Positions 4,387-9,119 of a stretch of 64,000 nt of DNA are shown here, piece by piece. Location of the stretch: NCBI RefSeq assembly GCF_030013205.1, contig NZ_CP122648.1. One strand, 5' to 3'. The DNA comes from Escherichia coli (GTDB lineage: Bacteria; Pseudomonadota; Gammaproteobacteria; Enterobacterales; Enterobacteriaceae). The notes below the pieces were generated by a model. That model was not told the origin of the DNA, did no database searches, and worked only from the letters and a program-made list of their open reading frames with translations. Every line of letters begins with the position of its first letter. Position 1 is the first letter of the stretch. The position numbers and the translations under genes were made by a program.

Positions 4387-4793
4387 GTGAAAAGGTGGTG
4401 TTCAGTCAACTGAGCCGTAAATTTATTGATGAGAACGATGCCACGCCCGCCGAGGCGCAGCAGGTGGTCTATTACAGCCTGGCGATTGGTCACCACCTTG
4501 GGGTTATCGATTGCCTGGAAGCGGCGCTCACCTGCCCGTGGGATGAATATCTGGCATGGATTGCCACTCTGGAGGCGGGCAGCGAAGCCCGCCGCAAAAT
4601 GGAAGGCGTACCGAAGTACGGTGAGATCGTCATCGACATTAACCATGTGCCGATGCTGGCCAATGCATTCGATAAAGCCCGGGCAGCGCAAACTTCGCAG
4701 CAGCAGGAATGGAGTACAATGCTGTTAAGTATGCTGCATGATATTCATCAGGAAAACGCCATCTATTTGATGGTGAGGAGATTGCGTGACTGA
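4383..4793 (+). CDS. hycH: Formate hydrogenlyase maturation protein HycH
   Basis: 136 aa, 4-nt overlap with hycG, conserved position. Confidence 0.88.
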
Positions 4794-5256
4794 CGTTTTA
4801 CTCTGTGTTGGCAATAGCATGATGGGCGATGATGGCGCAGGTCCGCTGCTGGCGGAAAAGTGCGCCGCCGCGCCGAAAGGTAACTGGGTGGTGATTGACG
4901 GCGGTAGTGCACCGGAAAACGACATTGTCGCTATTCGCGAACTGCGCCCGACACGACTGCTGATTGTCGACGCCACGGATATGGGGCTAAACCCCGGCGA
5001 GATCCGCATCATCGATCCGGATGATATCGCCGAGATGTTTATGATGACTACCCATAACATGCCGTTGAACTACCTTATCGACCAGTTAAAAGAAGACATT
5101 GGCGAAGTGATTTTCCTCGGCATCCAGCCGGATATCGTCGGCTTTTACTACCCGATGACCCAGCCGATTAAAGACGCCGTAGAAACCGTTTATCAACGGC
5201 TGGAAGGCTGGGAAGGGAACGGCGGATTCGCGCAGTTAGCGGTGGAAGAAGAGTAG
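4786..5256 (+). CDS. hycI: Hydrogenase 3 maturation endopeptidase HycI
   Basis: 156 aa, overlaps hycH stop, last gene of hyc operon. Confidence 0.9.
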   Translation: MTDVLLCVGNSMMGDDGAGPLLAEKCAAAPKGNWVVIDGGSAPENDIVAIRELRPTRLLIVDATDMGLNPGEIRIIDPDDIAEMFMMTTHNMPLNYLIDQLKEDIGEVIFLGIQPDIVGFYYPMTQPIKDAVETVYQRLEGWEGNGGFAQLAVEEE

Positions 5257-5327
5257 TTCGTAGACAAACATGTTCACGTTTTGGAATTTGGACGTGCTAT
5301 TGTGACGTGTAGACGGGTGTTTACATA

Positions 5328-5356
5328 TTGTGAACACCCGTGTGATCAACTACTAT
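5328..5356 (+). promoter_or_regulatory. Candidate sigma70 promoter (TTGTGA-N17-TACTAT) overlapping a perfect-arm palindrome CGGGTGTTtACA-tat-TGTgAACACCCG (5314-5340); putative HigA operator
   Basis: Direct reading of sequence about 70 nt upstream of the higB-like ATG; palindromic operators overlapping the promoter are typical of type II TA autoregulation. Confidence 0.4.
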
Positions 5357-5422
5357 AGAAAAATAAATCCGAAGGAATGGTAGTCCAGGTATAGTCATTC
5401 AGGCGCTAATAAGGAAGTTAAA

Positions 5423-5734
5423 ATGCACATCATTTCGAAAGCGCCATTTGAAGAGTGTGCGCGCAAATATCCTAACGACGCTCTGGCTCTACACTCATTG
5501 TATCGGGTTATTAAGGAAACGGATTTTTCTACGCCAGAAGAAATGCGAACGGCGTTTCCCAACCTCGACAATTTTAAATATCGCAATAAATGGTACGTTC
5601 TGGATGTCGGCGGGAACAATCTTAGGGTTATTGCCTACATAAACTTTGTTAATAAGCGGTTCTTTGTGAAGCACATAACTAATCACGCCGAGTATGACAA
5701 ACTGACACGTTACTACAGAGAGAACAAAGAATGA
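5423..5734 (+). CDS. HigB-like toxin (RelE/ParE superfamily mRNA interferase), paralog of K-12 HigB
   Basis: 103 aa; shares MH..KA...KYP, FPxLDNFKY, VGGNxLRV and HxEYD blocks with remembered E. coli HigB (YgjN); good SD (AAGGAAG) upstream; AT-richer than flanks. Confidence 0.8.
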   Translation: MHIISKAPFEECARKYPNDALALHSLYRVIKETDFSTPEEMRTAFPNLDNFKYRNKWYVLDVGGNNLRVIAYINFVNKRFFVKHITNHAEYDKLTRYYRENKE

Positions 5735-6150
5735 CTGCTAATGCTGCACGCGCTGTTAAAGCAACAAGAGAACTGGTCAATGCAGTCCCCTTTCTGGGAG
5801 GCAGTGACTCAGAAGATGATTATCGTGAAGCACTGGAACTGGTCGAATATTTGATTGAAGAAGATGATACTAATCCACTTATCGACTTTCTGGCGAGCCG
5901 CATTGCAGAATATGAAAACAATAACGAAAAGTTTGCAGAGTTCGACAAAGCCGTTGCAGCAATGCCGGTTGGCGTGGCGTTACTTCGTACGCTGATTGAT
6001 CAACATAATTTGACCTATGCGGATTTGAAGAACGAAATCGGCTCTAAATCTCTGGTCAGTCAGATTTTGTCTGGGCAACGATCCCTGACGATATCCCACA
6101 TTAAGGCACTTTCAGCCCGATTTGGCGTTAAGCCGGAATGGTTTCTTTGA
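5731..6150 (+). CDS. HigA-like antitoxin (XRE-type HTH DNA-binding protein)
   Basis: 139 aa; ATGA start/stop overlap with toxin; C-terminal EIGSKSLVSQILSGQRSLT helix-turn-helix; overall similarity to remembered HigA (YgjM). Confidence 0.8.
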   Translation: MTANAARAVKATRELVNAVPFLGGSDSEDDYREALELVEYLIEEDDTNPLIDFLASRIAEYENNNEKFAEFDKAVAAMPVGVALLRTLIDQHNLTYADLKNEIGSKSLVSQILSGQRSLTISHIKALSARFGVKPEWFL

Positions 6151-6176
6151 TTTTGACTGATGCCAAACCCAAGATT

Positions 6177-6201
6177 GCCCGATGCGCAACGCTTATCGGG
6201 C
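6177..6201. terminator. Hairpin GCCCGAT-N11-ATCGGGC between convergent higA-like and ascB
   Basis: Inverted repeat seen in sequence, located between two convergent stop codons. Confidence 0.4.
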
Positions 6202-6228
6202 TTTCCTGGTTCGTGCGACGGTAGTTAC

Positions 6229-9119
<2,891 letters not shown>

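Follow-up and report, generated by a model that had tools for sequence, protein, structure and literature searches.

Two described toxin-antitoxin pairs are close to the locus reported here, SehA/SehB of Salmonella (STM4031/STM4030.S) and HigB/HigA of E. coli K-12 (ygjN/ygjM; PDB 5IFG). In one study, SehA was reported to act by inhibiting RNase III and not by cutting mRNA; it was no longer toxic in an rnc mutant, and the RNA ends that it induced fell at RNase III sites of rRNA leaders. The in vitro RNase test of SehA used free total RNA, with translating ribosomes not described, and so is not sufficient on its own to exclude cleavage that depends on ribosomes. Alanine substitution at Y53, D61, H88, Y91, K93, T95, Y97 and Y98 abolishes SehA toxicity (PMC12817084). 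K-12 HigB is reported to cleave translated mRNAs, and phage infection is reportedly aborted by TAC modules that contain HigB (PMC11980606). SehB and HigA are both stated to bind palindromes in their own promoters (PMC7160566; review PMC11980606), a statement also made in PMC3868539, which has been retracted. A HigB-like gene is further present in PD-lambda-2, which protects against lambda-vir (PMC9519451; Vassallo et al. 2022) and in which B, rather than the HigB-like A protein, was the toxic part (PMC9519451). Our literature search found no paper on the E. coli pair between hycI and ascB, and the AIEC/CFT073 toxin-antitoxin inventory does not mention it.

In the 64,000-nucleotide stretch of E. 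coli DNA analysed here (the window), this pair lies in an AT-richer segment, with a GC content of 0.41-0.46 over 5300-6100 compared to 0.52-0.63 in the hyc genes and 0.51-0.56 in ascB (Table 1). The original prediction had placed a toxin-first HigB/HigA-like cassette with an ATGA overlap in such a segment, and the ORF list and sequence bear out both the gene order and the overlap. Each ORF starts with ATG, and the overlap geometry is identical in all relatives compared. Downstream, a GC-rich hairpin lies between the convergent operons and probably serves there as terminator or stabiliser, as judged from its sequence and position; the terminator scan did not report it, and an Rfam search of 5150-6350 returned zero RNA families. 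We consider it very probable that the locus represents a type II toxin-antitoxin operon, located on the chromosome and belonging to the HigB (PF09907)/HigA family, in a clade that includes Salmonella SehAB.

Table 1. Features of the hycI-ascB interval in window coordinates
Feature	Coordinates	Strand	Basis
hycI	4786-5256	+	left neighbour (ORF list)
K-12-variable segment	5259..6156	+	pairwise BLAST and alignment of hycI-ascB spacers; low GC
Allele-specific 5' leader/promoter region	5259..5410	+	genome counts, allele comparison
Candidate operator O1, 7-3-7 palindrome GTTTACA-TAT-TGTGAAC, 17 bp	5319..5335	.	inverted repeat, conservation
Putative sigma-70 promoter: -35 TTGTGA 5328-5333 (inside O1), 17-nt spacer, -10 TACTAT 5351-5356	5328..5356	+	position relative to that in relatives
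Shine-Dalgarno AAGGAAG of toxin gene	5411..5417	+	direct sequence reading
Toxin gene, HigB (PF09907)/SehA clade, 103 aa	5423..5734	+	ORF list, Pfam, PDB homology
ATGA start/stop overlap, 4 nt	5731..5734	+	ORF list, sequence
Antitoxin/autorepressor gene, HigA/SehB type, 139 aa	5731..6150	+	predicted role from Pfam, PDB homology
ACTGA microhomology, right junction	6156..6160	.	spacer alignment
REP-like GC-rich hairpin GCCCGAT...ATCGGGC, common to K-12	6177..6201	.	sequence, K-12 alignment
ascB	6229-7665	-	right neighbour (ORF list)

The family assignments of the original prediction were confirmed by profile and structure searches. The toxin matches Pfam HigB_toxin (PF09907) over residues 22-93 (E 4.6e-23), and its residues 1-100 match K-12 HigB (5IFG_A, E 7e-22). 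Its protein is identical to RefSeq WP_000547555.1, labelled 'type II toxin-antitoxin system HigB family toxin'; an NCBIfam search with the toxin returned no family. The Rts1/Proteus vulgaris HigB type (PF05015, HigB-like) was ruled out, with PF09907 alone being reported by Pfam for the toxin. The antitoxin, identical to RefSeq WP_000126294.1, carries an HTH_3 domain at its C-terminal residues 85-138 (E 7.9e-9), and residues 9-138 match K-12 HigA (5IFG_B, E 2.5e-35). By homology, it consists of an N-terminal dimerisation and toxin-binding domain followed by a C-terminal XRE-type helix-turn-helix; NCBIfam gave just one weak match, which was judged spurious. The fold of both proteins can thus be taken as settled by full-length homology to solved structures, and the toxicity, neutralisation, repression and cellular target of the pair are predicted from its relatives.

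The original prediction that the two proteins are related to but distinct from K-12 HigB/HigA proved correct (39% and 47% identity, respectively), with the refinement that SehAB is the closest studied relative, SehA being 58% identical to the window toxin in a gapless alignment. The SehA and SehB sequences used here were rebuilt from published primers and a frameshifted Salmonella contig; the rebuilt proteins have the lengths given in the literature (103 and 142 aa), and the rebuilt SehA was 41% identical to K-12 HigB (published 40%). The true SehA was not among the 120 protein-search matches listed, and a search with SehB fragments gave partial or frameshifted entries alone. The Salmonella protein P0030, 69% identical to the window toxin and with all numbered residues, was ruled out as SehA because it is prophage-borne and has a 139-aa partner.

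The residues behind these identities bear on how the toxin would act. All eight residues required for SehA toxicity are identical in the window toxin, compared to only four of the eight in K-12 HigB, in which D61, K93, Y97 and Y98 are changed. Likewise, the SehB repression residues listed in PMC7160566 are conserved at eight of eight positions in the window antitoxin. The toxin could instead be a canonical HigB, that is, a ribosome-dependent endonuclease cutting mRNA at the A site, with the rest of the operon logic unchanged. R68, H88, Y91 and R99 are invariant among the window toxin, SehA, the Salmonella prophage copy and K-12 HigB, which argues for this reading; RelE-type RNases use an Arg/His/Tyr set of this kind. 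The shared Pfam family, the full-length alignment to K-12 HigB, the mRNA cleavage reported for the latter and the use of free RNA in the SehA test point the same way, but the higher identity to SehA, the four SehA-essential residues kept here and different in K-12 HigB, and the rnc dependence and RNase III-site ends of SehA toxicity argue against it. On balance, we regard a canonical HigB activity as a tentative possibility, short of being the expected one.

Upstream of the toxin gene, the candidate operator O1 extends as an inverted repeat over 5313-5341 and was recovered by the inverted-repeat search as repeat I2 (13 nt, 92% complementarity). Its core is invariant in 12 aligned loci of about eight genera. 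O1 was present in 18 of 18 fetched loci with an intact toxin and in none of the orphan-antitoxin or empty loci, and its layout, GTTxxCA-N3-TGxxAAC, is the same as that of the sehAB and K-12 higBA palindromes, so that O1 is likely the operator of the operon. A second operator, O2, is present in all relatives, SehAB and K-12; the E. coli copies have only a degenerate form of it and a leader about 45 nt longer than that of the relatives. The putative promoter occupies the position of the relatives' TTGTAA-17 nt-TATAGT arrangement and matches the consensus at 8 of 12 positions; it scores under the threshold of our consensus promoter scan, which found no promoter on the + strand. The leader itself is allele-specific, and just 343 of the 5,426 E. 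coli genomes have it; in other toxin-bearing alleles, its place is taken by an ORF of 247-253 aa (orf248), the 247-aa form of which had no Pfam, PADLOC or PHROG match.

By homology to the described pairs, both genes would be carried on one transcript from a promoter that has its -35 box within the palindrome, with their translation coupled as the ATGA overlap implies. The 139-aa antitoxin would form a dimer that captures the toxin through its N-terminal domain and, through its C-terminal helix-turn-helix, binds the palindrome to repress the operon. Depletion of the antitoxin would then free the 103-aa toxin, thereby lowering translation capacity and slowing growth.

Relatives with 73-80% identity and the same overlap were found in unrelated chromosomal contexts of about eight genera, and on 1,041 plasmid records, including phage-plasmids, where the pair sits among tail genes. 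Further relatives were found in the Cronobacter phage JK004 and in a Salmonella prophage, the latter adjoining a P22_Cro-family gene. The company of phage genes on phage-plasmids and in the prophage is consistent with an abortive-infection system, in which the toxin would be released on phage infection, as are the PADLOC matches (PD-Lambda-2_A for the toxin, E 1.2e-15; the N-terminal portion of PD-Lambda-2_B for the antitoxin, E 2.4e-14), the protection conferred by PD-lambda-2 and the phage abortion reported for TAC modules. However, the antitoxin has no peptidase domain, its match to the 402-position B profile being limited to positions 9-115, and it is B, not the HigB-like A, that is toxic in PD-lambda-2. 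Moreover, no SecB-like chaperone or other third gene was found, there being no extra ORF from 6150 to ascB, which comes directly after, or upstream to hycI; the neighbours are housekeeping operons, with no defence gene immediately adjacent (hycF-I and ascB/F inspected). An anti-phage role of this kind is therefore improbable.

To follow the fate of the locus in the species, we compared it across complete E. coli genomes. The flanking genes were present in all 5,425 locus-matching genomes, while at least 80% of the 1.9-kb query was covered in only 927 of them. In Nissle 1917, the toxin protein is exactly that of the window. The antitoxin was full length in 2,508 of 5,426 genomes, whereas a toxin of 80% completeness or more was seen in only 1,091 (about 20%); in 581 genomes, just the last 33 bp of the toxin gene were left. 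Independent deletion alleles remove the toxin and spare the antitoxin, and Kluyvera georgiana and Serratia sp. DD3 have orphan antitoxins too. The locus has thus been eroded repeatedly, usually with the toxin lost and the antitoxin kept. Of the genomes with a retained antitoxin, more than half have a deleted toxin, so that toxin function may be weak or dispensable.

In MG1655, hycI and ascB are adjacent, as the original prediction had stated, and the 158-bp spacer between them contains no gene, both toxin-antitoxin genes being absent. Homology to MG1655 ends on the left at 5258 and restarts on the right at about 6157 (CTGATGCC...). The view of the cassette as a strain-variable accessory insertion accordingly holds for its variability, but not for an insertion relative to K-12, where the spacer consists of deletion scars. 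Its sequence joins junction fragments of the larger island orf248-higB-higA, which other strains carry, fused to one another, so that the K-12 site is best read as a deletion derivative and not as an empty ancestral site. The (A)CTGA of the right junction recurs in the long allele, on the left border of the higBA segment. A scan of genome contigs for relatives gave no locus titled Escherichia, and so no outgroup for the ancestral state.

Sequence variation within E. coli differs between the two genes. In a sample of 10 sequences including orphans, higA had 23 codons with synonymous-only variation compared to 3 with amino-acid changes, showing purifying selection on the antitoxin within these 10 sequences only; two orphan copies differ from the window gene at 11 nucleotides, yet their protein is the same as the window antitoxin. 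In contrast, higB had 9 synonymous-only and 6 amino-acid-changing codons (n=10), which shows relaxed constraint on the E. coli toxin, and one E. coli toxin allele carries Y98C, a change at a residue essential in SehA. These data, together with the excess of antitoxins over toxins, the independent deletions and the orphans in other genera, favour an explanation in which the antitoxin, and not the pair, is selected, either as anti-addiction immunity to the related modules of phage-plasmids, plasmids and prophages or as a free-standing transcription factor, with the toxin as a decaying passenger that in this strain happens still to be intact. Also in favour are the operator of an Enterobacter phage-plasmid, which is of the O1 class, and the 75-82% identity of the antitoxins that chromosomal relatives have in other genera. 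The selection test comprises 10 sequences only, however; the orphan alleles are without the O1 operator and promoter, which leaves orphan expression putative; no second strong O1-like site was found within the 64-kb window, giving no sign of other targets; and the window toxin is intact, with every key residue present. Selection on the antitoxin in place of the pair is therefore somewhat unlikely. Less likely still is a combined proposal, in which the antitoxin is the unit under selection, kept as an orphan in about a quarter of E. coli genomes through immunity to or regulatory cross-talk with the related modules of enterobacterial phage-plasmids, and the surviving toxin is a SehA-like RNase III inhibitor and not an mRNA nuclease.

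The pair is an uncharacterised member of a known family, and the general view of toxin-antitoxin systems is unchanged by it. Its kinship to SehA matters because SehA was reported not to be an RNase. As a SehA homologue, the toxin is suited to a test in E. coli of whether RNase III inhibition is clade-wide or whether the family is split into nucleases and RNase III binders; a SehA-like toxin, if true, would carry the recently reported RNase III mechanism over to E. coli as well as to a mobile clade that is widespread. The hycI-ascB spacer, in turn, shows across thousands of genomes how a toxin-antitoxin island is eroded step by step, which bears on the anti-addiction hypothesis, and the reading of K-12 as a deletion derivative corrects the usual assumption that its site is the 'empty' ancestral one.

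Compared to the known systems, the window pair shares with SehAB the toxin-first order, the ATGA overlap, the C-terminal helix-turn-helix of the antitoxin and a 7-3-7 operator overlapping the -35 box. The toxins are of equal length, whereas the window antitoxin is 3 aa shorter than SehB and 45% identical to it. The operator sequence also differs, GTTTTCA-N3-TGAAAAC in sehAB and GTTTACA-TAT-TGTGAAC in the window, and sehAB is located between fdhE and dtd-like genes (Salmonella contig L028) and not between hycI and ascB. Because both the chromosomal site and the operator sequence differ, the window pair is a paralogue or xenologue of SehAB, not an orthologue. RNase III inhibition and a role in virulence are described for SehAB. 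K-12 HigBA belongs to the same Pfam family, with the same fold by full-length homology, and has nearly the same lengths (toxin of 103 aa in the window and 104 aa in K-12; antitoxin of 139 and 138 aa), the same gene order and the 4-nt overlap. Its -10 box is flanked by palindromic operators, of which the window has a counterpart to O1, with O2 degenerate; its half-site is GTTGCCA, the O1-O2 spacing is different and the locus is fadH-rlmG. PD-lambda-2 is related in part, its component A being distantly homologous to the window toxin and the HTH part of B to the antitoxin; membership was ruled out, as the peptidase domain and the third gene C are missing. Membership of the HigBAC/TAC group was likewise ruled out, as no SecB-like chaperone gene adjoins the pair. 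The mobile HigB-family pairs of Enterobacter pJBIWA008_2, Cronobacter phage JK004 and a Salmonella lambdoid prophage have toxins 69-79% identical to that of the window and the same ORF sizes, overlap and O1 operator class. O2 is intact in the two that were closely checked, pJBIWA008_2 and the Salmonella prophage, in contrast to the window, which has no recognisable O2. While these pairs reside on mobile elements, the window copy is chromosomal, at one fixed locus, and has a longer leader. Addiction modules of this kind move about on enterobacterial phage-plasmids, plasmids and prophages, and the cassette is best understood as a copy of one that has been domesticated or is decaying.

The window carries two ORFs, higB and higA, in the spacer that separates hycI (ending at 5256) from the convergent gene ascB (ending at 6229). 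They overlap by ATGA, and a good Shine-Dalgarno sequence precedes the first of them. GC content is 0.41-0.46 across the cassette segment versus 0.52-0.63 in the flanks. The ORF list, the sequence and the GC profile thus agree exactly with the original prediction of a two-ORF, ATGA-overlapping, AT-richer cassette between hycI and ascB. The cassette interval is 100% identical to that of swine strain K_EC180. The mechanical ascB ORF differs trivially from the RefSeq CDS (1,425 nt in the K_EC180 record) in its start. The REP-like hairpin downstream of the antitoxin gene is common to K-12 (L001, about 2085-2125), and an extra canonical REP copy adjoins ascB in K-12 but not in the window.

Features of the cassette and related sites in the window
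Feature	Position	Strand	Description
Window-specific left junction	5259-5410		occupies the place of orf248
Inverted repeat	5313-5341		13 nt, 3-nt spacer
O1 core (candidate operator)	5319-5335		17 bp, GTTTACA-TAT-TGTGAAC
Inferred promoter, TTGTGA	5328-5333		17-nt spacer to TACTAT; 8/12 consensus positions matched for the pair
Inferred promoter, TACTAT	5351-5356		
Shine-Dalgarno	5411-5417	+	AAGGAAG
Toxin ORF (higB)	5423-5734	+	103 aa, ATG start (ORF list)
Antitoxin ORF (higA)	5731-6150	+	139 aa, ATG start (ORF list)
REP-like hairpin	6177-6201		GCCCGAT...ATCGGGC
Mechanical ascB start	7651-7665		TTG, 3 codons upstream of RefSeq start
Other operator-like match	62352-62368		GTTTTCTTATTGTGATC, 3 mismatches

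The toxin matches Pfam HigB_toxin (PF09907, E 4.6e-23), and residues 85-138 of the antitoxin form a Pfam HTH_3 domain. In a PDB search, toxin residues 1-100 aligned to K-12 HigB (5IFG_A; E 7e-22, 39% identity) and antitoxin residues 9-138 to K-12 HigA (5IFG_B; E 2.5e-35, 47% identity), bearing out the proposal of a HigB/HigA-type pair related to yet distinct from K-12 HigBA. An NCBIfam profile search of both proteins gave nothing useful. The identical RefSeq proteins are named "type II toxin-antitoxin system HigB family toxin" (WP_000547555.1) and "helix-turn-helix domain-containing protein" (WP_000126294.1). Judged by sequence, the cassette belongs to the HigB(PF09907)/HigA family of type II toxin-antitoxin operons, and within it to the clade that includes the Salmonella pair SehAB.

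Across 12 aligned regions upstream of the toxin gene, drawn from about eight genera, the O1 core does not vary (GTTYACATATTGTRAAC). Exactly one copy is present in each fetched locus with an intact toxin gene, and none in any fetched orphan-antitoxin or empty locus. A motif scan of the 64-kb window found no second good match; the sole other operator-like match is no better than chance (2 matches against 0.17 expected; 1 of 100 shuffles also reached 2). In relatives, a -35 TTGTAA lies inside O1 and a second operator copy, O2 (GTTYACATAATGTAAAC), lies 21 nt downstream of O1, just past a TATAGT -10 box. In the sehAB promoter the arrangement is unchanged and the operator reads GTTTTCA-N3-TGAAAAC, whereas the K-12 higBA promoter has GTTGCCA-N3-TGGCAAC with different spacing. 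A GTTxxCA-N3-TGxxAAC operator is thus common to three paralogous systems, and the two differing central half-site bases would insulate them from each other. The E. coli copies have a degenerate O2 and a leader longer by about 45 nt. A consensus promoter scanner did not report the inferred window promoter (5328-5356). The operon would be autoregulated through the O1 palindrome.

Among 5,426 complete E. coli genomes, the full-length antitoxin gene is present in 2,508, while a toxin gene at least 80% complete is found in 1,091 and one reduced to its last 33 bp in 581. The window-specific left junction occurs in 343 genomes, and orf248, a 247-253-aa ORF upstream of higB in other alleles, is at least 80% complete in 1,462. 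The longest sampled allele reads hycI-orf248-higB-higA-ascB. That of Nissle 1917 has the same left part and a toxin protein identical to the window's, with a small opposite-strand DUF4259 gene (L030:2249-2548) after the cassette in place of asc; the window-type allele lacks orf248. Orphan alleles keep either orf251 or a 61-aa orf248 remnant with higA only, and pairwise comparison showed them to be simple internal deletions of the long allele. K-12 and O157 have empty sites.

An orf248-type ORF lies between hycI and higB in strain Z1323CEC0019 (L003:814-1557). orf248 has a hydrophobic, signal-peptide-like N-terminus, exists as two sequence types about 90% identical, and had no match in Pfam, PADLOC or PHROG. 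In strain R10, an opposite-strand gene for a 145-aa hypothetical protein (L007:3715-4152) follows the cassette instead of ascB, and then hydN. An IS621 (IS110-family) transposase is annotated within the hycI-ascB interval of strain DETEC-P829 (NZ_CP116106.1), so that at least one strain adds further evidence of a rearrangement hotspot. Two contigs appear to be E. coli DNA that was binned with the wrong genome: L008 (JAIJJM010000690.1, labelled Collinsella sp. MAG), whose HycI end, HigA-like protein and AscB end match E. coli at 96-99% protein identity and orf248 at 87%, and L019 (labelled Citrobacter sp. MAG), whose HigA-like protein and AscB match at 96-99%.

The K-12 spacer is pieced together from three parts of the long allele: ATCAGGACAGGGATGT, the ribosome-binding site and start codon of orf248 (15/16 matched); GGGATGTTCTTGATGGGGTGAACCAGCTCTGA, its last codons and the sequence just downstream (28/32 matched); and a piece beginning CTGATGCCA that runs on as sequence 3' of higA. 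Its junctions carry a GGGATGT(GC) repeat and a CTGA repeat. The orf248 scar in K-12 lies at L001:1972-2025, K-12 and O157 retaining only the fused start and end of the gene. For orf248, deletion is the more parsimonious explanation, since an insertion would need the start codon and last five codons of the gene to arise from target duplication. Where only the higBA segment is considered, the CTGA repeat is compatible with either insertion or deletion. A scan of genome contigs for the locus recovered no outgroup Escherichia genome.

In 10 sampled E. coli copies of higA, 23 variable codons were synonymous-only and 3 protein-changing, and two orphan copies differed from the window at 11 nucleotides and no amino acids. 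In six higB copies, 9 variable codons were synonymous-only and 6 amino-acid-changing. Small as it is, this codon sample fits the gene counts in showing a conserved antitoxin and a toxin that is under weaker constraint and often lost. One toxin allele (WP_024236722.1, L003:1731-2042) carries Y98C and may be attenuated, as alanine at residue 98 abolishes SehA toxicity. Orphan HigA-like loci, with toxin gene and O1 deleted, occur in E. coli (L004, L005, L007), Kluyvera georgiana (L013) and Serratia sp. DD3 (L014); the E. coli orphans would have to be transcribed by read-through from orf248, its remnant or the hyc operon. The data are compatible with the antitoxin being the selected part, as anti-addiction immunity or a regulator, and with the pair acting in abortive-infection defence; the two readings are not mutually exclusive.

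Pairs in which the toxin is 73-80% identical and the genes overlap in the same way were found in Leclercia, Mangrovibacter, Kluyvera, Citrobacter, Phytobacter, Yokenella and Pluralibacter, none beside hycI or ascB; cluster listings also include Klebsiella, Citrobacter koseri, Salmonella, Hafnia, Lelliottia and marine Gammaproteobacteria. Toxin homologues occur on 1,041 plasmid records (531 at 60-80% identity; 653 from Klebsiella), the best matches (78.6% identity) being on 88-200-kb replicons of Enterobacter, Leclercia and Citrobacter. The one best-matching plasmid inspected has the pair surrounded by tail and baseplate genes and is therefore a phage-plasmid. Cronobacter phage JK004 carries a toxin copy (76.7% identity), and a Salmonella enterica prophage (CP053413.1, L025:3792-4621) carries a pair at 69% identity. 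The latter directly adjoins a divergent 155-aa gene and a P22_Cro-family gene; such a moron-like placement could tie it to lysogeny control or superinfection exclusion. The cassette is related to modules circulating on phage-plasmids, plasmids and prophages. PADLOC gave distant matches to PD-Lambda-2 A and B; the cassette lacks two features of that system, the fusion of its B protein to a peptidase and a third gene.

The cassette is textbook in its family, architecture and regulation, and the toxin is already labelled in public annotation; the E. coli pair itself is uncharacterised, and our literature search found no paper on the hycI-ascB toxin-antitoxin locus of E. coli. Its modest interest lies in the link to SehA, the operator code across three paralogous systems, and population-wide toxin loss with antitoxin retention.

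By sequence comparison, Salmonella SehAB is the closest characterised relative. SehA, a HigB-like toxin, shares 40% identity with K-12 HigB (PMC12817084, which cites 5IFG). The protein search did not return the true SehA and SehB sequences directly, and they were rebuilt from mutagenesis and cloning primers (PMC7160566), partial database proteins and a frameshifted Salmonella contig. The rebuilt proteins have the published lengths (103 and 142 aa), and rebuilt SehA is 41% identical to K-12 HigB (published 40%). The window toxin is 58% identical to rebuilt SehA without gaps, and the antitoxin 45% identical to rebuilt SehB. SehA toxicity is abolished by substitution at Y53, D61, H88, Y91, K93, T95, Y97 or Y98 (PMC12817084); under the same numbering, 8/8 are identical in the window toxin and 4/8 in K-12 HigB. 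Furthermore, the residues needed for SehB repression (Y32, L42, L52, I60, S107, L121, L129 and F140; PMC7160566) are all conserved (8/8) at aligned positions of the window antitoxin. SehA is reported to inhibit RNase III; its toxicity was lost in an rnc mutant, the RNA ends it induced mapped to RNase III sites in rRNA leaders, and it did not degrade total RNA in vitro (PMC12817084). The RNA in that last test was free, and the study describes no translating ribosomes, so on its own the result leaves room for ribosome-dependent cleavage; the rnc dependence and the mapped RNA ends carry more weight. Given the higher identity to SehA and the full conservation of SehA-specific residues, a SehA-like target (RNase III) is placed slightly ahead of canonical mRNA cleavage for the window toxin; this ranking depends on a single study, whose protein is 58% identical.
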